From: an uncultured delta proteobacterium
GTDB lineage: Bacteria > Myxococcota_A > Polyangia > Polyangiales > Polyangiaceae
NCBI GenBank assembly: GCA_963850305.1
Contig: CAWKKR010000008.1
Coordinates: 544,001 to 608,000 of the forward strand
Direction of reading: 5' to 3'
DNA: 64,000 bases
Position numbers and translations under genes: made by a program. Positions within the stretch are counted from its first letter, which is position 1. Each line of letters begins with the position of its first letter. Shown here piece by piece: positions 27,724-38,450 of this stretch. The notes beneath the pieces are model-generated. The model searched no databases. It was given only the letters and a program-made list of their open reading frames with translations, and was not told the DNA's origin.

Positions 27724-29589
27724 ATGGCCGAGACACAGGATCGCCGGGCCCCCGGCGTAAACCGAGTCACCGTCACCCGATCCGTCGACATCTGCGGGCG
27801 CGACGCCACCGTTCCGGCCTTCGAGGCCGAATCCGTCGAGCTCTCCGGCCGCGGCATGCACGTCCGCACGCCGTACTTGCCGCGCCTCGGCGCGCCGCTC
27901 GTCTGCCGCCTCGAGGAAGACGGTCGCGAGATCGTCGTAGAAGGCGTCGTCGCGTGGCAGCGCGACCGCGAGGGCGGCGGCGAGTTCGGAATCCAGTTCA
28001 CCGCGCTCGACAGCGGCAGCGTCGAGGCCCTGAAGGGGATGTGCGGCCTCGACGACGACGCGCGTCCCGGCGCGCCCGCCGCGGCGGAGACCCTGCCGGC
28101 CGCAGCGCCGCCGGCCCCCGCCGGGATGCCCGTGAAGCTTCACATCGACGGCCTCGGCGCGCCGATGAAGGCGCGCGTTCGCGCGGGGAGCACGCGCAAG
28201 GTCCAGGTCGGTTCGAACCTCGAGTTTCTCAAGGTCGGCCGGGGGCTCGAGATCGAGGACGTCGAGCAAGGCGACCGCCGCGGCGCGCGCATCGACGCCG
28301 TCTCGATCGCGATCGACCCCGAGACGCAGGTCCCGCAGCTCGTCGTCGCGCTCCGCTACGACGGCGAGGACGCCACCCCCGAACCGAGCGTCATCGGCGA
28401 CGAGGACGCTTCCGGCGTGGCGCCCATCGAAGCGAGCGAAGCCGCACCGCCCGTGCGCGTCGATGATGATGACGACGACGGTGACGGCGCGGACGACGAG
28501 GAAGAGCCGGCCCTCCGCGGCAAGGTCGACGCTTTCGCCGTGTCCGTCGGAAAGGCCGCGAAGAACACCGGCGAGAAGCTCGCCGGCGCGGGCGGCTCGG
28601 CCGCCGCCGGCTTCGCGAAGTGGGCGAAGGCGAGCGGTTCGAAGCTCGCCGAGCTCGCCGCGCGGCGCAACACGAACAAGCGTCGCTCGACGTCCAGGGC
28701 CGTCTCGGCGGCGCCATCGACGCAGCGACTCCGCCCGCAAAACGGCGAGCGCGAGGCCGCCGAAGCGGGCCCGAGCCGGCGCCAGAAGCTCGTCGCGGGA
28801 GCGAGCGCGAGCGCCATCCTGGTCGTTGCGGTCGGCGCCTTCGCGCTCACCGGGCATTCGAAACACCCGACGCCCCAAGGGACGCCCGCCGCAGCGCCTC
28901 CACCCCTCGCGGTCCTCACTCCGCCGGCAGCTCCCGGTGCCGTCGCGGCAGCCACGCCCGTCCCCGGGACGCCCGTGGTTCCCGGCGCGGTGCCTGGCGC
29001 CGCGCCCGCGGTGAACGCCGCGGGGCCGCACGCCGGCGTCGTCGCGAACGTGCCGCTCTTCGGCCCGACCCCGATGGCGACCCTCGAGCCCGCGCCCCTC
29101 GGTCCCGCGCCGGACGAGATCGCCGCTGCGGCGCCGAAGCCGGCACACGCGACCGAAGAGCGGATGGACGACGACGAGCCCAAATCGTCGAAAGACGAAG
29201 CCTTCAGCGACTCCTCGAGCAAGGATGACGACAAGGCCGAAAAGTCCGAAAAATCGGCCGATGCCAAGGCGGAGAGTGTATCGCCCTGGGGTCAGGGCAA
29301 ACTCCATCTGCCCATCGTTCACCGCATCAAGCTCGACCGACCCGGCGCGGCCATCGAAGGCAAACACGAGGCGGCTGGCTTCAGCATCGTGATCCCGGAC
29401 CGCAAGGTCGAAGGTAGCGGCCTCTCCATCACGAAGCGCGACGACCGCATCTCCGACGTGCGATTCAAGAATGGCCCTTCCGGCGCGCGCATCACCTTCG
29501 TGTTCCGGAGCCGGGTCCCCGGATACAAGGTCCGTCTCCGCAAGAGCTACGTCGAAGTGCTCGTCAGCTCGCCGGGCAGCGCGAAGTAG
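27724..29589 (+). CDS. PilZ-domain membrane protein with Pro-rich linker and AMIN-like C-terminus
   Basis: DRR..ELSGRGM..VAWQR..FGIQFTALD; central TM; C-terminal beta-rich domain. Confidence 0.8.
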   Translation: MAETQDRRAPGVNRVTVTRSVDICGRDATVPAFEAESVELSGRGMHVRTPYLPRLGAPLVCRLEEDGREIVVEGVVAWQRDREGGGEFGIQFTALDSGSVEALKGMCGLDDDARPGAPAAAETLPAAAPPAPAGMPVKLHIDGLGAPMKARVRAGSTRKVQVGSNLEFLKVGRGLEIEDVEQGDRRGARIDAVSIAIDPETQVPQLVVALRYDGEDATPEPSVIGDEDASGVAPIEASEAAPPVRVDDDDDDGDGADDEEEPALRGKVDAFAVSVGKAAKNTGEKLAGAGGSAAAGFAKWAKASGSKLAELAARRNTNKRRSTSRAVSAAPSTQRLRPQNGEREAAEAGPSRRQKLVAGASASAILVVAVGAFALTGHSKHPTPQGTPAAAPPPLAVLTPPAAPGAVAAATPVPGTPVVPGAVPGAAPAVNAAGPHAGVVANVPLFGPTPMATLEPAPLGPAPDEIAAAAPKPAHATEERMDDDEPKSSKDEAFSDSSSKDDDKAEKSEKSADAKAESVSPWGQGKLHLPIVHRIKLDRPGAAIEGKHEAAGFSIVIPDRKVEGSGLSITKRDDRISDVRFKNGPSGARITFVFRSRVPGYKVRLRKSYVEVLVSSPGSAK

Positions 29590-29599
29590 GCGAGAGCGC

Positions 29600-30298
29600 T
29601 CAGCGGCGCTTCAAGGCTTCGATCTCGGCCGCCAGACGCTCGGCCCGCTCGGTCTCGGCCCTGGCCCAAGCCACTTCGGCCTTGAATGCCTCGGACGGCA
29701 TGGGTAACGCCACGCCGTCTCCGTCGATCCATCGAAGCCACGGCGCTTCGACGCTCCACAGAGAAGAAGAGATTGGCGCCAGGGACAGCCCGAGCGCCTC
29801 GCAGCGGAGCCGTCCCTGTTCGTCGAGCGACTTTCTCCGATAGCGTCCGTGCGGCGCGTCGAGCTCGTAACCCTCGAGAACGGCGGAGAACGGATTGTAC
29901 AAGAAGTACTCCCCGACCCTGAGCCGGGCGTAGACGCGCATCTTCTCCCCCCGGTCGACGTGCTCCGTCTGCTCGGAAAGGAGCTCGATGACGACGTCCG
30001 GCACCTGGCCGTTCTCTTCCCAGACGACCCACGCACGCCGTTCCCGTCGCGTCGTGTTCATGACGACGAAGACGTCCGGGCCGCGGAAATCATTGTTCCG
30101 GGCCTGCGTCTCGCTGAAGTAAAGAAACATGTTCCCGCCGACGTAGAAGTCGTCGCGGTCCTGCCAGGCGTACTCGAGTGACTCGATGAGCACGGTCATC
30201 ATCTGGCGGTGCCGCGCCGATTCCATCGGCTCACCGTCGTCGTAAATGAGCTCGTCCGAAGCGGGCGGCCGGACCGGCAATCCGAGCGGTAGCGACAT
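29600..30298 (-). CDS. Uma2-family (PD-(D/E)XK) endonuclease-like protein
   Basis: DDGEPMES..H, GPDVFVV, PDVVIELLS, DRGEK..Y, EYFLYNP. Confidence 0.92.
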   Translation of the reverse strand: MSLPLGLPVRPPASDELIYDDGEPMESARHRQMMTVLIESLEYAWQDRDDFYVGGNMFLYFSETQARNNDFRGPDVFVVMNTTRRERRAWVVWEENGQVPDVVIELLSEQTEHVDRGEKMRVYARLRVGEYFLYNPFSAVLEGYELDAPHGRYRRKSLDEQGRLRCEALGLSLAPISSSLWSVEAPWLRWIDGDGVALPMPSEAFKAEVAWARAETERAERLAAEIEALKRR

Positions 30299-30580
30299 GG
30301 CTGCTCCTCATCGTAGCTCACCCCCATCGGTCCCGCGACAAGCCTGGTTTCGAGATTTGGGATGGCGTCGGGGCGGCGCTCACGCCACGGACGCGGCGCT
30401 CTCCACGGATTGCGACGCGACCCGCGTTCGACGTCGCGTGGCGACGAGAGCTCGCGCGCACGGCGCAATGACGTCCCCGACGACACGCCGGCCGTGCGTA
30501 CGATCTCGAGCGACCAGGCGACGCTCGTGCCAGGCACGTGACACGGAAATCTGACCGAATCTGGCCCCGAATGACAGGCA

Positions 30581-30600
30581 GTGGCACATCGTTGTGCCAC
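30581..30600. promoter_or_regulatory. Perfect palindrome upstream of the hot-dog/histone genes (putative operator)
   Basis: GTGGCACA-TCGT-TGTGCCAC. Confidence 0.45.
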
Positions 30601-30670
30601 ACTGCCCTCATGGCGGATGGAGCGTGCGGAGCAACGGCCGGCGCGCCGCGGCGCGGCTAGGATGCGCGGC

Positions 30671-31159
30671 ATGGACCCTGAACCGGTCTCCTTCGACGCC
30701 GAGTTTCTCGCGGATCTCCCCTACGACCCCGAGGTCTTGCTGTTCGACGCGATCGTCGCGCTCGACCGCGACGCGAGCCGCGTGACGTGCCGCATGCCGA
30801 CGCTCGAGTCGCTGCCGTTCACGCGGAGCCAGCGGACGCACCCGGTGTTCCACCCGCGCCACGTCGCCGGCGCCGTCTTCGTACACGCGACGGGCATGCT
30901 CGGCTTCGTCCACGCCTACTACGTGCTCGGGTTACGTCATCGCGAAGGCTGGGTCGGGTACGGCGCCCGGATCCACTCCGCGGCCTTCCGCAAGCTGGTC
31001 CCGCCCGGCACTCCCGTCCTGGCCGACTGCAAGGCGACGACCGTCCGCTCGAGAAAAGCGCGCCACGTCGTCCGTTACGAATTTCGTTTCACCCACGACG
31101 GCGAGACTTGCTACGAGGGCGACCAGACCGCCATGTGGATGAGGGTTCAGGAAAGCTAA
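30671..31159 (+). CDS. Hot-dog-fold (FabA/FabZ-like) protein
   Basis: LPY..LLFDAI..HV.G..HATG..AAFRKLVPPG..YEFRF matches the FabZ-like layout; start uncertain (30662 or 30671). Confidence 0.65.
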   Translation: MDPEPVSFDAEFLADLPYDPEVLLFDAIVALDRDASRVTCRMPTLESLPFTRSQRTHPVFHPRHVAGAVFVHATGMLGFVHAYYVLGLRHREGWVGYGARIHSAAFRKLVPPGTPVLADCKATTVRSRKARHVVRYEFRFTHDGETCYEGDQTAMWMRVQES

Positions 31160-31163
31160 GGTC

Positions 31164-31907
31164 TTGGAATCCCTCGACGCGAGTCTGTTCCGGCGCTGTA
31201 GCACCTGCAAGGATCCGATCCCGTTCGACACGGCGTACTTCCGGTGCAGCGTCTCGACGTGCAACCGAAAGAAGATGATGCTCGTCTTCTGTTCGCTTTC
31301 TTGCTGGGACGCTCATCAAGCCGATGTGCGGCACAGAGACGCCGGGGCCGAGGAAGCTCGTTCACCGACAGCCGCGGCGTGGGCCCTGGAGCTCGCGGAA
31401 CAAAAAAGGGAATCTGCAAGAGCGGACGCGGCGCCCGTCGAGATGCGGCGCGTCGCGGGCACGGCGTCGCTCGACATCCTCGTCGTGGCCGCGAAGCTGA
31501 AGGACTACATCCGCACGCGCGCCGGCATGAGCACGTCCGATCGTGCCCTGGGCATGCTGTCGGATCACCTGCGCGAGCTCTCGGATCGTGCGATCGCGAG
31601 TGCCGGAGCGGATGGACGCAAGACCGTGCTCGAGCGGGACATCGCGCCGCTCGTCGCGCGCGGGCTCGCGTCGCTCGCAAGTGGCGCGACCGAAACCGAC
31701 GACCGTGACGGCGAAGTGCTCGTCGTCGCCTCGAAGCTCAAGGCGTACGTGAAGGCACGCGCCGGCATGAGCACGTCCGACGCCGTCATCCCGCTCCTCT
31801 CGACGCACCTGCGACGCCTCGCACGAGGCGCGATCCGTCACGCCGGGACCGACGACCGCAAGACCGTCCTCGACCGAGACTTCGTCGCGGCCGTCGCGAA
31901 GTGGTGA
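31164..31907 (+). CDS. Zn-finger (ZZ/PHD-like) protein with two tandem bacterial histone folds
   Basis: CSTC..CSVSTC..CSLSCWDAH..H, then DILVVAAKLKDYI..GMSTS..DGRKTVLERD and EVLVVASKLKAYV..GMSTS..DDRKTVLDRD, each resembling the Bd0055/HBb-type histone fold with its RKT..RD signature. Confidence 0.9.
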   Translation: MESLDASLFRRCSTCKDPIPFDTAYFRCSVSTCNRKKMMLVFCSLSCWDAHQADVRHRDAGAEEARSPTAAAWALELAEQKRESARADAAPVEMRRVAGTASLDILVVAAKLKDYIRTRAGMSTSDRALGMLSDHLRELSDRAIASAGADGRKTVLERDIAPLVARGLASLASGATETDDRDGEVLVVASKLKAYVKARAGMSTSDAVIPLLSTHLRRLARGAIRHAGTDDRKTVLDRDFVAAVAKW

Positions 31908-32039
31908 AATGTCGATCGACGGTCCGGGCCTGGCGACGAACGCTCTTAGGCCTGCGAAGGTCCGATGATAAACCCCTCCGGCTCGCCACTACGAGCACTC
32001 ACGTCGGCCGATGCCAGACCGCCTGCAGGAGAACGGCCC

Positions 32040-32580
32040 CTCCAGCATCCGGAGCGTCGGCTCCAGCACCTGGAGCGTCGGCTCCAGCACCCGGCGCGTC
32101 GGCTCCAGCATCCGGCGCATCGGCTCCAGCATCCGGCGCATCGGCTCCAGCACCTGGAGCGTCGGCTCCAGCACCCGGCGCGTCGGCTCCAGCATCCGGA
32201 GCGTCGGCTCCAGCACTTGGAGCGTCGGCTCCAGCACTTGGAGCGTCGGCTCCAGCACTTGGAGCGTCGGCTCCAGCACTTGGAGCGTCGTTCCAAGCGC
32301 TCGGCGCGCGCTTCCGGACACGTAACTCGCCTTACCGCGCGCTGGTGTCGACGCTCCGCGTATCCGGGCCGCCCTTCCCGACGCTTGACTCGCCTCTCCG
32401 CGCGCCTGACACGCCCTTCCCGACGCTTGACTCGCCTCTCCGCGCGCCTGACACGCCCTTCCCGACGCTGGTGTCGACGCTCCGCGTGTCCGGGCCGCCC
32501 TCCCCGACGCTTGACTCGCTTTGCCGGACGTCGGTGTCATCTTCCCGAGCGCTCGGCGAGCGCTTCCGGACCCGGAGCTG
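32040..32580. repeat. 21-bp tandem repeat array: 12 conserved units (32040-32291), then diverged 21/42-bp periodic units
   Basis: Consensus CTCCAGCAYYYGGMGCRTCGG; then alternating CTTCCCGACGCTTGACTCGCC / TCTCCGCGCGCCTGACACGCC-type units. Confidence 0.95.
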
Positions 32581-32708
32581 GCCTTGCTAATCGCTCGGTG
32601 CGCGCTTCCGCTGGCACGGCGCGCGTTGCCGGAGGTCCGGCACGGGTCTCCTGGCTCTGCGCCCTCGGGCTCCGGGCGCGCCTCCATGCCGGTGATGCTG
32701 CAGCTCTC

Positions 32709-33776
32709 TCACCCCACGCCCGCTCTTCGCCCGCGCCCTTTGCGCGTCACTCGCGCGAGCACCGTCGCGGGGCTCGTCTCGATCCGACCGGTGTCGTCTT
32801 CACCGGCGCGGAGGCGCGAAAGGCCCGCCATGGCGATCATCGCGGCGTTGTCGGTGCAGCTCGCCGGAGCGGGGAGCACGACGCGGAGCTCGCGCTTCGC
32901 ACAGGCTTCGGACATGCGTGCGCGCAGCTCGCGGTTCGCCGCGACGCCCCCGCCGAGTACGACGGTCGACACGCGCTCGCGAAGCGCCGCGGCGATCGTC
33001 TTTCGCACGAGCACCTCGACGACGCGGTGCTGGAATGCCGCGCAGAGATCGCGGAGGCGCTGATCGTCGGCGAACGGGCCGTGACTCTCGACGAACCGGG
33101 CGACATTCGTCTTGATGCCGGAGAAGCTGAACTCGAGGGAGTCGCGCCGCGGCATCGGAGGCGATACGGCAATGGCGTGCGGGTCGCCCTCGGCCGCGAG
33201 GCGATCGATCACCGGTCCTCCGGGATAACCCAGGCCGAGGGCCTTGGCGACCTTGTCGAAGGCTTCGCCCGCGGCATCGTCGCGCGTCGCGCCGAGCTCG
33301 TGGATCGCGCTCGGCTCGAGGCCGTCGACGCGATAGAGCGCCGTGTGTCCGCCCGATACGAGCAGCGCGACGAACGGTAGCTCGGGCCGATCGGTGGGCA
33401 TCCCGGGTCGCACGAGATACGCCGACGACAGATGCCCGACGAGGTGGTCGACGCCGACGACGGCCTTGTGCGCGCCCCAGGCGAGCCCCTGTGCGATCTG
33501 CACGCCCACGAGCAGCGCCCCGGTCAGCCCCGGACGGCACGTGACGGCGATCCCGTCCACGTGCGCGATATCGACCTTCGCTTGCTCCAGCGCGGAAGCG
33601 ACGACGAGGGGAGCGTTCCGCAGGTGGTCCCGCGACGCGAGCTCGGGGACGACGCCGCCGTACGGCGCGTGCACGGCGATCTGGGTGTGCACGACGTCGG
33701 ACACCACGCGGCCTTCGTCGTCGACCACGGCCGCGGCCGTCTCGTCACAAGACGTCTCGATGCCGAGCACGAGCAT
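32709..33776 (-). CDS. tsaD: tRNA N6-threonylcarbamoyladenosine synthase TsaD
   Basis: LGIETSCDET, GGVVPELASR.H, HLVGH, VSGGHT, DDAAGEAFDK, TDNAAMIA. Confidence 0.97.
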   Translation of the reverse strand: MLVLGIETSCDETAAAVVDDEGRVVSDVVHTQIAVHAPYGGVVPELASRDHLRNAPLVVASALEQAKVDIAHVDGIAVTCRPGLTGALLVGVQIAQGLAWGAHKAVVGVDHLVGHLSSAYLVRPGMPTDRPELPFVALLVSGGHTALYRVDGLEPSAIHELGATRDDAAGEAFDKVAKALGLGYPGGPVIDRLAAEGDPHAIAVSPPMPRRDSLEFSFSGIKTNVARFVESHGPFADDQRLRDLCAAFQHRVVEVLVRKTIAAALRERVSTVVLGGGVAANRELRARMSEACAKRELRVVLPAPASCTDNAAMIAMAGLSRLRAGEDDTGRIETSPATVLARVTRKGRGRRAGVG

Positions 33777-34340: not shown

Positions 34341-37300
34341 TTACGGCGACCGCGACAGGAGGCTCTTCGCGAGCTCCCGGACGCGGGGCTCCGGATCGGC
34401 GCGAGCGACGCTTTCGAGCGAGCGACTGGCCTTGTCGCCGGGCGCGCCGCGCAGGGCCCGGACCGCGCTCTCCCGGACGAAAGCGATCGGATCGCGTCCC
34501 GCGACGGTCGCGAGGGCGGCGATGGCCGCGTCCGCCCGGGGCCCGTTCACGAGCGCTCCGAGCGCCCGCGTGGCGCGCTCGCGCATCGGCCAGTCCCCTG
34601 CCGTCTCGGACAGCTTGATCACGGCGTCGAGCGCGCGGTCGTCCCTCGTGCGCGAAAGCGATGCGAGCGCCGCTCGCTGAACGGAAGCGTCCTTATCGTC
34701 GAGCGCGGCGACGACGGCGGCGCGCGCCGCGTCCTCGGGACGATACGAGAGCACGCGGATCGCGTGGGCGCGCACGTCGGCCGACGGGTGGTGCGTCAGC
34801 AGCAGGAACGGCTCGACGAGCGCGGCAGCGACGCGCTCGAGCGTCGCGTCGGCCGCCGCGCGCGCATCCGGCGAGGCGGTGTCGAGGTCGTCCGTCAGCG
34901 GCGCGAACGTGGGCTTCCCGTTTCGCCCGAGCAACGCGTCGGCGACGACGCTCGCTCCCTCCGGGCCCGAGCGGACCGCCGTCACGGCAGCGTCGACGAG
35001 CTCCTTCTCGAGGTTCGCGACGGCCCGAGCGCGATCGTCTGCGGTGAAGCCCGTCGGGCGTAGCTCCTCGAGCACCGTCCGGACCTCGATGCGCCCCTCC
35101 GGCATCGGCAATACGTCGGCGGGGGCTCGATAGTCGCGCGTCGCGAGCACGAGCGCGGCGTCGGACGCCGCCGCTCGGAGCTCCACGTCCGGGCCGACGA
35201 GAGCATTCGCGACGGCCGTCTTGGCGGACGGTGAACGGGTGCGCGCAAGGGCCAGCACCGCGGTCCCACACAGAACCGGGTCCGTCGATTCCGCAAGGCG
35301 CGTCAGGACGGCGTCCGCGGCTGGCGACGCCCCGAGCGCCCCGAGCGCGTACGCGGCCGCGGCGCGGACCACGATCTCCTGATCGGACGAGTCGGCGAGG
35401 GCCACGAGCGCGCGAGCGTCGGCGTGGTTCGCGAGCAATCCGAGACCGATGGCACCCAGCGCGCGGACGCTCGGCGCGTCGCTGGAGAGCATCTCGACGA
35501 GCAGCGGGCGCGCCTTCGGGCTCTGCATGCGCGCGACGCTCCACGCGGCGGCGACGGCGACCGTGTCCGTCTCGTCCACGCGCACGTTGCCCGCGGGGGC
35601 GATGATGGCCGCGATGCGCGGCAGCAGCGCCGGATCCCGGAGCTCGCCGACGGCGAGCATCGCGCGCGTTCGCAGCTCCCCCTCGGCCTTGCCCATCGCG
35701 AACGTGATGAGCGCGGGCCCCGCGCTCGCGTTGGAGATGTACGAGAGCAGATCGACCGCGATCCGCTGCTGGGAATCCCGATCGTCCGACAGCGCGTCGA
35801 GGAGCGGCTTGACCGCGCGTTCGCCGAGCTCGTGCAGCGCCGCGCGCGCGGCCGTCGCCCGCGCCGGATCCGACGCGTTCGCCTCGTGCTCCAGCGGGAA
35901 CGCGAGGTTGCCGTACACCTCCACGAGCAGGCGACGGTAGATCGGCCGCCCCGGGTTTCCGAGTGCCACCGGCAAGAGCTCGCGCTCGAGCGATTCGAGC
36001 GTCCCTCGGCCGAGGTTCAGCTGCATGCTGAGCCTCGCGGCGCGCGCTACGAGCTCGTCGTCCGGGCAGGCTCGCACGACGCGCCGGAGCAACCGGTCCG
36101 CTTCATCCACCTCGCCGCGCGTGACGAGGAGATCGGCCAGGTCGAAGTAGACCGGAAATTGGCGGTCGTTCTTCGCCAGGGCAAGCCTGAGCTCGACGAT
36201 CGCGTGGTCCACGTCCTGGCGCCGCCGGTACATCTCGCCGAGCTTCCGGTGCCCCTCGGCGTCATCCGGACTGAGCTCGACGGCCTTCGATGCATAACGG
36301 ATGGCGTCGTCGTCACGGTAGAGCTCCGCGGAGTATTGCGCCATGCGCTCGTAATACTCGCGGGCGCGTCGCGCATCGACGTTCACGAGCCGCGCGAGCA
36401 CGGTGATCGCCGCGGCCAGCTCGTGCTGTGCGACGAGCGCGCGCTCGAGCGACAGGTACGCCTCTTCGTCGCCGGGGTCCTTCGTCACGATGACGCGCAG
36501 CACGCGCTCCGCGTCCGAGGGTCGTCGCAGCCTCCCGTATACTTCGGCGAGCAAGCGCCCCGCCTCGAGATCCGGCGGCGCCTGCGCCAGGCGCCGCTCG
36601 AGAGGACGCGCGTGGTCGCTCAGGCTCCCTTCGAGACTCCAGATCGTGACGATGTGCTGCCGTGCTTCGCGCGCTCCGGCCGGGTCGGGAGCTTCGTGGA
36701 GCAGGTTCTGCCAGAGCCGCGTCGCGGCGTCGTACTGGTCGCTGCGCGCGACCCCGGAAGCGCTCGTCCCGGTGCGTTCGAGCGCGAGCGCGAGCGCCTT
36801 CTGGTACTTGAGCTCGTGCGGGGCAAGCTCCGAGGCCTGTTTGAGGGCCAAAAGCGCCTCGTCCGACAGGTCGTGCTCGAGGAGCACCTCGCCGAGCGAG
36901 TGCAGCCCCTTCGCCCGGTCGGGGACCATGACGCGGATTCTCTCCCAGATCTCCCGAGCCCGCTTCGTGTCCCCCTTCCTGTAATACTGGTCGCCGAGAT
37001 CGACGAGATACCGCGGGTCGCTGCCACGCGTATTCGCGAGCCTGTCGAGGAGCCGCGTCGCGCGGTCCGGCTCGTTGATGCGCTCGTAGAAGTCGACGAG
37101 CGCCGACGCAGTCTCGTCGTCCCCCGCCGTGCGCGCCTCGAGCCGGCCGAGCTCGGCGAGCGCGCGCGCGCGGTCCCCGCGCTGGATCAGCGTCTCGGCG
37201 AAGCGAAAGACGAAGTCCGGATCGTTCGGCGACGCGCGGATGAGGAGCTCGTACTCGTGAGACGCCTGGTCGAGCTTCCCCTCGATCTCGAAGAGCTGCA

Positions 37301-38450
37301 CGACCTTGAGGCGTGTCGCGATATCGTCCTTCCGCGCGAGCGCGCGCTGATACGCTGCAAGCGCATCCTCGACGCGGCCCGTCTCTTCGTACAGGCCGCC
37401 GAGCAGCGTCAGTCGTTCGAAGTCGTCCGGGTGCTCGGCCTCGAGCAGCTTTACGAGCTCCGCAACGCCGCCTTTCGCACGATAGACGTCCGCCATCGTG
37501 TCGAGGATCTCGCGGCGGAGCCCGGATTGCCCGCCCGCGGCGGTGAGCGCCTTGCGCAGCACGTCGAGCGATTCCTGAGTCTTGTTCTCGCGCGCGAGTG
37601 TCCGTCCGAGGTCGCGCTCGGCCGGCGCGAGCGCACGGTTGTCACCGAGAGCCCACTTCACGACCTTGCGATACTCGGCCTCCGCGCGCTCGAACTCCCC
37701 GCGGTCGAAAAGATCGCGTCCGAGCTCCTCGCGCGCGAGAAACGAGCCCTTGGCGCGAGTGACGATCCCGTCGTGGTACTTCTCCGCAGCCGCGTAGTCG
37801 TCGAGCGAAAGACAGAGGCCGAGGAGGGTGTGCAGGAGCTGCTCGCGGTCGGCGTCGCCCTGCACGTCGGGAAGAGCCTCTTCGTACCTCCTCCGCGCGC
37901 CGGCCTTGTCCCCACGCGATTCGAGGAGCCGCCCGAGCGCGAGCACGCCGACCGGATTCTTCGGCGCTTCGGCGATCGCGCGCTCGTAAGCAGCGACGGC
38001 TTTGTCGGACTGTGCATCGTGGGCAAGCGTGCCGCCGAGGGCGACGAGAGCCGCGTAGCGCTCCGTACCGGTCTTGTCGGAGCGCGACGAAAGCTCGGCG
38101 ATGAGCTTGTCGAGATTGCCGTCGCGCTCGCGGTAGAGCTCGACGAGGCGCTCGAGCGGGAACGGCTCGCCGGGCCGCGCGAGCACGAGCGCCGTGTACC
38201 GAGCAATGAGCACCTCCGTGCTCTCGCCGTTCTCCGTCGCGCCGGGGTTTTGACCGGCGGCCCCCGACGGCGACGACGCCGCGCTCGGGCCGTGACCCGC
38301 TGCCCCGTGACCCGGCGCATGCGACGCTCCCCTCGCGCTCGGATGCTTCCCCGCATGACGGCCGAGCGGATTGAAGTCGGCAAACGCCGGCGACGCTCCG
38401 AGGGCGAGAGCGACGCACCCGAAGGCACCGAGACGGAAAAACGCGCGCAC
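34341..38450 (-). CDS. Large exported TPR + HEAT-repeat protein
   Basis: Signal peptide (ASPAFA-D), many TPR helix pairs, C-terminal HEAT repeats (VRA.AA.ALG). Confidence 0.9.
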   Translation of the reverse strand: MRAFFRLGAFGCVALALGASPAFADFNPLGRHAGKHPSARGASHAPGHGAAGHGPSAASSPSGAAGQNPGATENGESTEVLIARYTALVLARPGEPFPLERLVELYRERDGNLDKLIAELSSRSDKTGTERYAALVALGGTLAHDAQSDKAVAAYERAIAEAPKNPVGVLALGRLLESRGDKAGARRRYEEALPDVQGDADREQLLHTLLGLCLSLDDYAAAEKYHDGIVTRAKGSFLAREELGRDLFDRGEFERAEAEYRKVVKWALGDNRALAPAERDLGRTLARENKTQESLDVLRKALTAAGGQSGLRREILDTMADVYRAKGGVAELVKLLEAEHPDDFERLTLLGGLYEETGRVEDALAAYQRALARKDDIATRLKVVQLFEIEGKLDQASHEYELLIRASPNDPDFVFRFAETLIQRGDRARALAELGRLEARTAGDDETASALVDFYERINEPDRATRLLDRLANTRGSDPRYLVDLGDQYYRKGDTKRAREIWERIRVMVPDRAKGLHSLGEVLLEHDLSDEALLALKQASELAPHELKYQKALALALERTGTSASGVARSDQYDAATRLWQNLLHEAPDPAGAREARQHIVTIWSLEGSLSDHARPLERRLAQAPPDLEAGRLLAEVYGRLRRPSDAERVLRVIVTKDPGDEEAYLSLERALVAQHELAAAITVLARLVNVDARRAREYYERMAQYSAELYRDDDAIRYASKAVELSPDDAEGHRKLGEMYRRRQDVDHAIVELRLALAKNDRQFPVYFDLADLLVTRGEVDEADRLLRRVVRACPDDELVARAARLSMQLNLGRGTLESLERELLPVALGNPGRPIYRRLLVEVYGNLAFPLEHEANASDPARATAARAALHELGERAVKPLLDALSDDRDSQQRIAVDLLSYISNASAGPALITFAMGKAEGELRTRAMLAVGELRDPALLPRIAAIIAPAGNVRVDETDTVAVAAAWSVARMQSPKARPLLVEMLSSDAPSVRALGAIGLGLLANHADARALVALADSSDQEIVVRAAAAYALGALGASPAADAVLTRLAESTDPVLCGTAVLALARTRSPSAKTAVANALVGPDVELRAAASDAALVLATRDYRAPADVLPMPEGRIEVRTVLEELRPTGFTADDRARAVANLEKELVDAAVTAVRSGPEGASVVADALLGRNGKPTFAPLTDDLDTASPDARAAADATLERVAAALVEPFLLLTHHPSADVRAHAIRVLSYRPEDAARAAVVAALDDKDASVQRAALASLSRTRDDRALDAVIKLSETAGDWPMRERATRALGALVNGPRADAAIAALATVAGRDPIAFVRESAVRALRGAPGDKASRSLESVARADPEPRVRELAKSLLSRSP

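Follow-up and report, generated by a model that had tools for sequence, protein, structure and literature searches.

A zinc-finger histone with two tandem bacterial histone folds in Polyangiaceae, a probable single-chain ZZ histone

The 64,000-nucleotide stretch of DNA analysed here (the window), from a soil myxobacterium (Polyangiaceae), carries a gene (Table 1) that probably encodes a single-chain bacterial ZZ histone, in which a ZZ-like finger and a connecting helix are followed by two HBb-type folds paired intramolecularly, with one finger per pseudodimer. In the part of the literature covered, ZZ histones are a published category described with one fold, with D0LYE7 from Haliangium ochraceum as the exemplar (Schwab et al. 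2024, Nat Commun, PMC11390915), as the earlier note on this DNA had stated. Under the scenario we favor, the doublet takes the place of the single-fold ZZ histone in its lineage. Its N-terminal finger would be a two-zinc, ZZ-like module that acts as a tether or regulator of the histone module through some ligand, and the pseudodimer would carry one such finger rather than two. Non-specific DNA binding would use the alpha1 pair together with the two L1-L2 sites, and the DNA would be bent as by HBb, but by a monomer. The duplication may have let the two halves diverge, giving a polar pseudodimer.

Table 1. Features of the doublet gene and its upstream neighbor in the window.
Feature	Coordinates	Strand	Details
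Upstream ORF, weakly FabA/FabZ-like	30581..31159	+	192 aa listed; homology from ~aa 33-37
ZZ-finger histone doublet CDS	31164..31907	+	247 aa, TTG start, TGA stop
Zinc-finger core, C12-H57	31197..31334	+	eight ligands, proposed cross-braced C4 + C2H2 sites, ZZ-like
Connecting helix, finger to fold 1, aa 70-86	31371..31421	+	DSSP H70-86/87, two AF2 models
Histone fold 1 (HF1), near-neutral half, aa 104-160	31473..31643	+	HBb match E 9e-8
Linker, aa 161-183	31644..31712	+	23 aa; conserved S170, A172, G174, D179, D180
Histone fold 2 (HF2), basic half, aa 184-240	31713..31883	+	9qt0_A match E 1.5e-4

The start codon of the doublet lies 5 nt past the stop of the upstream ORF and is the sole ATG, GTG or TTG codon between that stop and Cys12. 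Full-length homologues of the protein align at 55-73% identity with 95-100% coverage. The genome's own gene call (P0038, 154 aa) begins at M94, and the zinc finger is therefore missing from the annotation, which can be corrected in that the N-terminal finger upstream of Met94 belongs to the doublet gene. The only cluster annotation of the protein is the JGI name 'histone H3/H4'.

The two repeats reported in the earlier note were recovered with their 23-aa linker; they align without gaps at 34 of 57 identical residues (BLASTP E 2e-22 in a single comparison). Their assignment to the HBb/Bd0055 type holds in sequence, as residues 104-161 match the Bdellovibrio histone (8cmp_A/8fvx_A) at E 8.8e-8 and residues 181-240 match 9qt0_A at E 1.5e-4 (phmmer against PDB sequences), and in structure, as described below. 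With the HF-HMM, HF1 scores 99.9 bits and HF2 104.8 bits. The NCBIfam family archaea_histone matches two stretches of the doublet at 3.6e-7, below the family cut-off. The RKT..RD motif noted earlier is kept in both folds as R-K-T-V-L-x-R-D. The R-D clamp of HBb (R51, D58, D49) corresponds to R152, D159 and D150 in HF1 and to R232, D239 and D230 in HF2, and R152, T154, R158, D159, R232 and D239 are invariant among 53 aligned doublets. The alpha1 basic residues (HBb K10, K12, K16) are K111, K113 and R117 in HF1 and K191, K193 and K197 in HF2, with K113 at least 90% conserved and K193 invariant in the same 53 proteins. Each of the five linker residues named in Table 1 is likewise conserved in at least 90% of them, and the linker is 17-23 aa long across 12 doublet genomes. 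Purifying selection acts on all parts of the protein, both folds included (dN/dS 0.04-0.25 for HF1 and 0.07-0.18 for HF2).

Modelling also points to pairing within the chain. The AF2 model (pLDDT 92.4, pTM 0.71) places both folds in one intramolecular handshake, with helices at 109-120, 126-149 and 157-165 in HF1 and at 189-200, 208-229 and 237-246 in HF2 (DSSP). The lowest-confidence block (aa 171-180, mean pLDDT 70) falls in the linker. Each fold alone superposes on HBb at 0.8 Å (Foldseek match 9f0e_A, TMt 0.92, 57 columns, 42% identity). For the two folds together, the best Foldseek match is the Methanopyrus doublet histone 1f1e (E 1.3e-4 over 148 columns). By VIA-align, the best 34 rows for residues 102-247 are all single-chain histone pairs, with 6k03 at Z 10.2, 1f1e at Z 9.9 (rmsd 3.0 over 130 residues), and Sos 1q9c, the Melbournevirus doublets and 1wwi also matching. 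The analogy to doublet histones drawn in the earlier note is thus borne out, as is, at the level of a model, a handshake with one finger per pair; the word 'obligate' that the note attached to this pseudo-dimer exceeds the evidence. The model suggests that HF1 and HF2 pair within one chain as a pseudodimer and that the protein is probably monomeric. A two-copy complex prediction of the whole protein scored 0.00 and 0.00, which has no bearing either way.

The Cys/His cluster at aa 12-57 that the earlier note had recognized resolves into C12-x2-C15-x12-C28-x4-C33-x9-C43-x3-C47-x3-H51-x5-H57. All eight ligands are invariant in the 53 aligned doublets, and also in a set of 60 sequences with single-fold relatives among them, and their spacing equals that of D0LYE7, as printed in the source, at seven of eight positions. 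The finger is predicted to bind zinc, and the allocation of its ligands to a C4 or a C2H2 site is putative. An AF2 model of aa 1-100, the finger region, has a pLDDT of 89.1, and the ZZ domains of p62, HERC2, p300, ZZZ3, Nbr1 and BIG head its structure lists, weakly: the top Foldseek matches are ZZ domains (5yph_A at E 0.13; list E 0.13-3), and structure alignment gives 7dd9_A at Z 4.5, 6e86_B at Z 4.1 and 6ww3_A at Z 4.0 (list Z 3.8-4.5). With matches up to E 1 considered, Pfam lists PF00808 and DUF3330 only, neither of them a ZZ family. Constraint is strongest on the finger (dN/dS 0.03-0.12), whereas aa 69-103, which include the connecting helix, are less conserved (0.12-0.49).

In the phmmer alignment, HBb residue numbers are shifted by +101 in HF1 and by +181 in HF2. 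In the part of Hu et al. covered, the HBb DNA contacts are N22, R57, S9, T53, T8, S24, K10, K12, K52 and K16; in that order, they correspond to S123, R158, A110, T154, A109, S125, K111, K113, K153 and R117 in HF1 and to S203, R238, S190, T234, A189, S205, K191, K193, K233 and K197 in HF2. Seven of the ten are retained in both halves, six of them identical to HBb and one (N22) replaced by Ser, and eight are retained in HF2, where S9 is kept too; T8 and S9 are Ala in HF1, as is T8 in HF2. These conserved contact residues suggest that the doublet may bind and bend DNA. In the earlier note, both folds were said to look functional, which stands as far as conservation and selection are concerned, with DNA binding predicted from sequence.

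The two halves differ consistently in charge. The mean net charge in 64 doublets is +0.94 for HF1 and +5.14 for HF2, D141 is found in 100% of the HF1s and R221 in 98% of the HF2s, and HF2 is more basic than HF1 in all 12 doublet genomes. Duplication would have freed the halves to diverge and would thereby have made the pseudodimer polar. Given the helix numbering, in which fold positions 31 and 38 are symmetric about the alpha2 midpoint, R221 of HF2 could lie opposite D134 of HF1 at the alpha2-alpha2 crossing. It is tentatively proposed that the protein is a polar unit, with an acidic HF1 face (D141), a basic HF2 face (R221) and the finger at one end, suited to directional DNA binding or bending or to head-to-tail stacking, and that its genus has no other histone-fold chromatin protein. 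It would then mark a bacterial step from a symmetric homodimer to an asymmetric single-chain 'heterodimer', which, if true, is the same kind of step as the one before H2A-H2B and H3-H4, taken here by a DNA-binding histone of HBb type with one ZZ finger.

Among the matches listed, 68 of 120 homologues have two folds; one of these is the window's own call and the others are 67 protein clusters from metagenomes. The remaining 52 are single-fold proteins of 164-231 aa (E 1e-52 to 5e-43, 48-60% identity, 62-68% query coverage). Of 383 Polyangiaceae genomes surveyed for the finger-fold-fold architecture, as the earlier note had proposed, 12 have the doublet, all seven of the window's genus among them, with the finger and two folds in one open frame in all 12 and one histone match per genome in each; three named Polyangiaceae MAGs carry it. 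The doublet is the only histone-fold gene found in the window's genome, which also has three HU/IHF-type genes; a second HF-HMM match (E 0.003) was rejected, being 19 residues in a 56-aa arginine-rich frame. G136, aligned over query residues 8-240, was likewise rejected as a doublet since it has a single fold with a long Pro/Ala linker, and the 72-aa P0122, considered as a free-standing HF2-like gene, comes from a contig of just 1140 bp and appears to be part of a doublet. A search for longer homologues found no larger fusions, which is weak evidence. The closest ESM Atlas clusters have a single fold, are 187, 158 and 197 aa long and carry the name 'hypothetical protein'; among clusters of at least 50 members, none was a doublet.

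The upstream ORF is only weakly similar to known proteins (Pfam FabA at E 0.02, below the cut-off; PDB FabZ 1u1z_A at E 0.055). By tblastn, its homologue adjoins the 5' side of the doublet in loci L002/L032 and L033, lies 2.4 kb from it in locus L031, and is absent near it in locus L003. As the upstream stop is 5 nt before the TTG, the two genes are possibly co-transcribed. No conserved neighbors were found in the 1.5-kb flanks of L003 or of 27 single-fold loci. A scan of positions 30200-32800 gave nothing promoter-like, and its one terminator-like hit, within the doublet gene, is at chance level. In a search of sequencing runs, no RNA run was listed for the doublet; the only ones listed were two DNA runs of soil metagenomes, both from a single study and with a small word share. 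Their reads gave short contigs only, with an exact 151-bp piece corresponding to 31761-31911 and none spanning both folds.

That the second fold is an artefact of assembly or annotation is vanishingly improbable. The assembly is of metagenome type, in 11 contigs, and its own gene call is shortened, both of which could raise that suspicion. However, the architecture occurs in the 67 other protein clusters, which come from several sources, in 11 further genomes and in the three named MAGs; 58 of the 171 bases are different between the repeats; and both halves are under purifying selection. For practical purposes, the independent occurrences refute the artefact reading. Identity between the repeats at 113 of 171 bases, with 28 of 57 third codon positions identical, indicates an old duplication rather than an assembly duplicate, which answers the worry raised in the earlier note. 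The fold tree proposed in the note bears on how the two folds came together. The HF1s form one group (SH-aLRT 92) and so do the HF2s (SH-aLRT 98). A 219-row tree without constraints puts the HF2 clade next to a group of 12 single-fold ZZ histones (SH-aLRT 85) and HF1 next to other singlets (SH-aLRT 83), as would be expected had the doublet arisen by fusion of two diverged single-fold genes, a ZZ histone and a second histone, rather than by tandem duplication; the HF1-HF2 identity of just 40-60% inside one protein also leans that way. These placements are unsupported with 57 columns, however, and when HF1 and HF2 are constrained to one clade the tree is 16.9 lnL better and is not rejected (p-AU 0.786). 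The analysis likewise turned up no stand-alone gene that is close to HF2. Fusion is thus an unlikely origin, and the sequences are compatible with a single internal duplication.

Even with both folds accepted as genuine, they could pair between chains, HF1 with HF2 of the next molecule, in domain-swapped dimers or in head-to-tail filaments with a polarity set by the acidic and basic faces. The complementary D141 and R221 and the low model confidence at the linker center would suit such an arrangement. It is nevertheless quite improbable, as the predicted handshake is of high confidence and can be superposed on single-chain histone pairs, natural as well as engineered, the known tandem histone folds in the part of the DHF review covered are intramolecular pseudodimers, and a linker of 17-23 aa is present in all 12 genomes. 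A somewhat unlikely reading, to be given more weight than interchain pairing or fusion, concerns function, namely that the protein is a low-abundance specialized factor, a regulator or adaptor rather than a general nucleoid protein, with the pseudodimer as its tether and the finger as a ligand reader. According to the parts of Schwab et al. 2024 (PMC11390915) covered, RNA and protein of the Bdellovibrio ZZ histone are both at very low levels, and non-architectural roles are suggested for some histone-fold proteins. The genome's retention of three HU/IHF-type genes and the strong constraint on the finger fit as well, as do the finger's best fold matches, the ZZ domains of p62, HERC2, ZZZ3 and Nbr1, which in eukaryotes bind peptides and recognize N-terminal ones. 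On the other hand, the HBb DNA-contact set and the R-D clamp are kept in both folds, the gain of about four positive charges by HF2 is what DNA contact would lead one to expect, the residues of the ZZ peptide pocket are reported as unconserved in bacterial ZZ histones (Schwab et al. 2024, PMC11390915), and outside close relatives no conserved partner gene was found. Because the Bdellovibrio single-fold ZZ histone is reported to be lowly expressed, a major architectural role for the ZZ family is disfavored. For that reason, and because there is one gene with only a weak FabZ-like neighbor in close relatives, the 'undescribed chromatin system' of the earlier note was too strong.

Compared with known histones, the single-chain ZZ histone proposed here is closest to the ZZ histones, with which it shares an N-terminal C4 and C2H2 finger, an HBb-like fold behind it and an occurrence in Myxococcota; single-fold relatives are about 50% identical across the finger and one fold. 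It differs in having two tandem folds, so that there is one finger per histone pair and not two, as well as a conserved 23-aa linker and halves diverged in charge, and after the second His most doublets read RHRDAGAEE where singlets read RHRDAWAE. As it has two fold domains, it is filed as a variant of the ZZ histones and not as a typical member. The supplements of Schwab et al. label 528 entries 'ZZ histone' in a table that gives no lengths, so doublets are possibly among them; neither 'doublet' nor 'tandem' occurs in the supplements examined. HBb/Bd0055 (8cmp, 8fvx, 9f0e; 'bacterial dimer') has the RKT motif, the R-D clamp and most DNA contacts in common with the doublet halves, in addition to the structural match given above, but is a free homodimer of 60-odd residues, whereas the doublet is fused, finger-bearing and asymmetric, with a longer modelled alpha3. 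The modelled alpha3 helices have 9-10 residues, with an extension beyond the 57-aa core in common with HBb; alpha3-truncated histones are defined by an alpha3 of 3-4 residues in the part of Schwab et al. 2024 (PMC11390915) covered.

Other histones with two folds per chain are more distant. Archaeal doublets (HMk of Methanopyrus kandleri, 1F1E, and haloarchaeal HstA) are also single-chain two-fold pseudodimers, but they belong to the nucleosomal histone family, lack a zinc finger and are 16-22% identical to the ZZ doublet, which is a duplication independent of theirs within the bacterial alpha3/HBb-type lineage. The DUF1931 histones (1WWI of Thermus, 1R4V of Aquifex) are bacterial with two folds per chain, 1wwi matching at Z 8.5 over 134 residues with 23% identity. 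Unlike the doublet, whose halves keep such residues, they are reported in the source text covered as having no DNA-binding residues, and they have no zinc finger. DUF1931 gives no Pfam match in the doublet protein at E up to 1; 9qt0_A, the 65-aa PDB chain matched by HF2, is named 'DUF1931 domain-containing protein'. The Marseilleviridae doublets (7N8N, 9CVT; Z 9.0-9.4) are likewise fused pairs acting as single-chain dimers, but the pairs are eukaryote-like (H2B-H2A and H4-H3) and form nucleosomes, and the ZZ doublet gives no sign of octamer-like assembly. No description of a ZZ finger with two tandem histone folds was found in the literature searched, in agreement with the earlier note; the single-fold ZZ histone is described and the doubled form appears to be new to the literature.

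In the portion of the literature covered, the bacterial histones with DNA-binding residues are all single-fold homodimers, and the only bacterial pseudodimers mentioned are the DUF1931 proteins, which are said to lack such residues. The ZZ doublet, probably a monomer, would be a convenient natural construct with which to study how bacterial histones bind DNA, by structural and single-molecule methods. It is also a natural experiment on dimer halves that evolve separately, in which one half has reproducibly gained about four positive charges. As the doublet halves the ratio of finger to dimer, it bears on the role of the ZZ finger in this family of bacterial histones.

The histone doublet is encoded by an open reading frame of 247 codons with a TTG start, 5 nt downstream of the stop codon of the preceding ORF. 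This TTG is the sole ATG, GTG or TTG between that stop codon and Cys12. Since the gene call made for the locus in the window's own genome (P0038, 154 aa) begins at Met94 and omits residues 1-93 (31164-31442), the zinc finger is missing from the called proteome. Several metagenomic relatives have calls of 210-216 aa that begin at the position matching Met38; as one such cluster also includes the same protein called at 250 aa, they look like start-site miscalls. Short calls of this kind probably arise systematically where the true start is TTG or GTG.

The ligand pattern that the earlier note gave for the finger is exact (C12-x2-C15, C28-x4-C33, C43-x3-C47-x3-H51, H57), and the finger would bind zinc. 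Modelled alone (residues 1-100, 60-row alignment), it reached a pLDDT of 89.1. Its best Foldseek matches were the ZZ domains of p62, HERC2 and p300 (E 0.13 to 3), and a wide VIA-align search returned Nbr1, ZZZ3, HERC2 and BIG (Z 4.0-4.5). The modelled finger is weakly ZZ-like; low structural scores are expected as the domain is 50 residues. In Pfam, DUF3330 matched the finger below threshold (E 0.24).

The two 57-residue repeats (HF1, aa 104-160; HF2, aa 184-240), described in the same note as histone folds of the type found in the Bdellovibrio histone Bd0055 (HBb), are identical at 34 of 57 positions (BLASTP E 2e-22), joined by a 23-residue linker, and indeed of that type. In phmmer searches of all PDB chain sequences, residues 104-161 matched the Bdellovibrio histone (8cmp_A and 8fvx_A, E about 9e-8) and residues 181-240 matched 9qt0_A, a 65-aa chain named DUF1931 domain-containing protein (E 1.5e-4). 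Foldseek superposed a single repeat on HBb 9f0e_A with an rmsd of 0.8 Å over 57 columns at 42% identity. Pfam gave only sub-threshold matches to the doublet (PF00808, E 0.02), and NCBIfam archaea_histone matched two stretches under its cut-off (E 3.6e-7).

An AlphaFold2 model of the whole doublet, built from an alignment of 53 doublets (mean pLDDT 92.4, pTM 0.71), has the helix pattern of a histone fold in both HF1 (109-120, 126-149, 157-165) and HF2 (189-200, 208-229, 237-246). Its top Foldseek match in the PDB was the doublet histone of Methanopyrus kandleri (1f1e, E 1.3e-4, 148 columns). With VIA-align, model residues 102-247 aligned as a single unit to single-chain histone pairs, which made up all of rows 1-34, including an H2A-H2B fusion (6k03, Z 10.2), 1f1e (Z 9.9, rmsd 3.0, 130 residues), the Sos histone domain, Melbournevirus doublets and 1wwi (Z 8.5). 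The two folds are thus predicted by AlphaFold2 and VIA-align to shake hands within one chain, in line with the intramolecular pseudo-dimer suggested beforehand.

Among 8000 scored candidates from metagenome and genome predictions, 1797 proteins matched the doublet at E up to 0.001. Within the best 120 of these, a profile HMM of the fold found two folds in 68 (ranks 1-66 and two further ranks, the call from the window among them); the other 52, proteins of 164-231 aa with about 50% identity, have one. Three named genome records, all Polyangiaceae MAGs, carry the doublet. At class level 236 of 401 genomes had a match, a tally that takes in two genomes flagged unpublished (G332 and G364). At family level the two-fold part was matched in 141 of 383 genomes and the match spanned both folds in 12: all seven of the window's genus, three of genus g216 and one each of g176 and g18. 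Each of the 12 has a single match, in which one uninterrupted reading frame encodes the finger motif and both folds, with linkers of 17-23 aa. A further candidate (locus L040, G136:C157:52600-56300) had looked doublet-like in a coverage table because its finger and fold are separated by a Pro/Ala-rich linker some 100 residues long; it is a single-fold ZZ histone and was rejected. The length of this linker varies widely in the ZZ histone family. Searches with the doublet protein itself, with NF043032 and with the fold HMM over all six frames found no second histone fold gene in the window's genome (94.8% complete), the next HMM match being a chance one over 19 residues. That genome has three HU/IHF-type genes.

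ZZ histones are described as an N-terminal ZZ-type finger with C4 and C2H2 sites followed by one bacterial-dimer-like histone domain with a truncated alpha3 (Schwab et al. 2024, PMC11390915). The ligand spacing printed there for the exemplar, D0LYE7 of Haliangium ochraceum, equals that of the doublet at seven of eight positions; according to the authors, the pocket by which eukaryotic ZZ domains bind peptides is not conserved. In the main text of that paper "doublet" occurs in the reference list only, and neither "doublet" nor "tandem" occurs in the supplementary files covered, where 528 entries are labelled "ZZ histone" without lengths. The bacterial pseudodimers named in the available text of a 2026 review of double histone folds (PMC13088155) and of Hu et al. 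2025 are DUF1931 proteins only, which both describe as without DNA-binding residues. Hocher et al. 2023 report size classes, singlet and doublet, that typically lack additional domains, and the available text contains neither "zinc" nor "Myxococc". Full-text searches of the literature available turned up no account of a ZZ finger combined with two histone folds. The protein is a real, conserved and lineage-restricted doublet variant of the catalogued ZZ histone category. The architecture proposed earlier as part of an undescribed chromatin system is apparently undescribed, but no multi-gene system was seen around the gene.

Features around the histone doublet gene in the window
Feature	Position	Strand	Remarks
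PilZ-domain protein	27724-29589	+	621 aa, N-terminal PilZ E 6e-11; long low-complexity Ala/Pro-rich middle
Uma2-family putative restriction endonuclease	29600-30298	-	PF05685, E 3.6e-22; between PilZ gene and FabZ-like ORF
192-aa ORF, weakly FabA/FabZ-like	30581-31159	+	Pfam E 0.02; PDB FabZ E 0.055
Histone doublet	31164-31907	+	
21-bp tandem array	32040-32290		12 copies, 92% matches
42-bp tandem array	32370-32519		3.6 copies
tsaD	32709-33776	-	
ORF	34341-38450	-	1369 aa, looks repeat-rich, TPR/HEAT-like by eye

Of the neighbors, just the FabZ-like ORF, whose stop precedes the TTG by 5 nt, stays beside the doublet, and this holds for close relatives alone: it adjoins the gene at loci L002/L032 and L033, lies 2.4 kb off at L031, and is missing from the surroundings of L003 and of 27 single-fold loci. 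Both tandem arrays lie in the gap of about 800 bp between the histone gene and tsaD and are crossed on both strands by long ORFs for repetitive peptides without a convincing Pfam family.

Computation also reveals a conserved asymmetry between the halves. Across 64 main-family doublets the mean net charge is +0.94 for HF1 and +5.14 for HF2, with single-fold ZZ histones at +1.71 and fold-only histones at +2.56; HF2 is the more basic in all 12 doublet genomes. At fold position 38, HF1 has Asp in every case (100%, D141) and HF2 has Arg in 98% (R221); at position 31 the residues are Asp in 92% (D134) versus Ala in 70% (A214), and at position 48 Gly in 92% (G151) versus Asp in 98% (D231). Positions 31 and 38 flank the modelled alpha2 midpoint, each at a distance of 3.5 residues. 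From helix numbering, an antiparallel alpha2 crossing would set R221 opposite D134 and D141 opposite A214.

The simplest reading of the fold trees is that the doublet arose by one internal duplication followed by divergence. In a quick search with 219 fold sequences and 57 columns (omitting P0038, the partial folds P0061 and P0063, and the fragments P0137 and P0157), 64 of 66 first folds formed one group (SH-aLRT 93), which also held the probable fragment P0069, and 63 of 66 second folds formed another (SH-aLRT 94); P0070 and P0071 fell outside for both folds and P0059 for the second. A reduced tree used the query and every third doublet of the main family (22 of 64), plus 75 single-fold and 8 fold-only sequences, and left out the likely fragments P0069 and P0122; in it a single branch set the first folds apart (92), and another did so for the second folds (98). 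The tree holding all 44 folds together was 16.9 lnL above the free search result and was not rejected (p-AU 0.786), on which, with the groupings, the duplication reading rests. Fusion of two diverged genes, the alternative raised in the earlier note, is the less likely reading, judged on fold trees of just 57 columns. P0070 and P0071, with short linkers of 9 and 14 aa, may have separate origins as independent duplications of a ZZ histone. The duplication is old: between the coding repeats of the doublet 113 of 171 bases agree, and among third positions 28 of 57 do. Computed with three relatives that share about 71% identity, dN/dS (Nei-Gojobori) was 0.03-0.12 for the finger, 0.04-0.25 for HF1, 0.07-0.18 for HF2 and 0.06-0.58 for the linker, figures that are rough as dS is near saturation.

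The HBb residues reported to make most DNA contacts are N22, R57, S9, T53, T8, S24, K10, K12, K52 and K16 (Hu et al.). By phmmer alignment, these correspond in the same order to S123, R158, A110, T154, A109, S125, K111, K113, K153 and R117 in HF1, and to S203, R238, S190, T234, A189, S205, K191, K193, K233 and K197 in HF2. On this mapping both halves keep the R-D clamp and the RKT loop together with most of the contacts. The main rival to a nucleoid role holds that the family acts as a specialised factor of low abundance. This rival, the less likely reading, is favored by the low expression reported for the Bdellovibrio ZZ histone, a singlet (PMC11390915). The best-supported reading remains that the single-chain histone pair would bind the DNA backbone non-specifically; DNA binding, the monomeric state and any role of the finger are what we infer here. 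The doublet would then be a unit with one ZZ-like finger, one basic end and one near-neutral end, which would bend DNA as HBb does without the need to dimerise.
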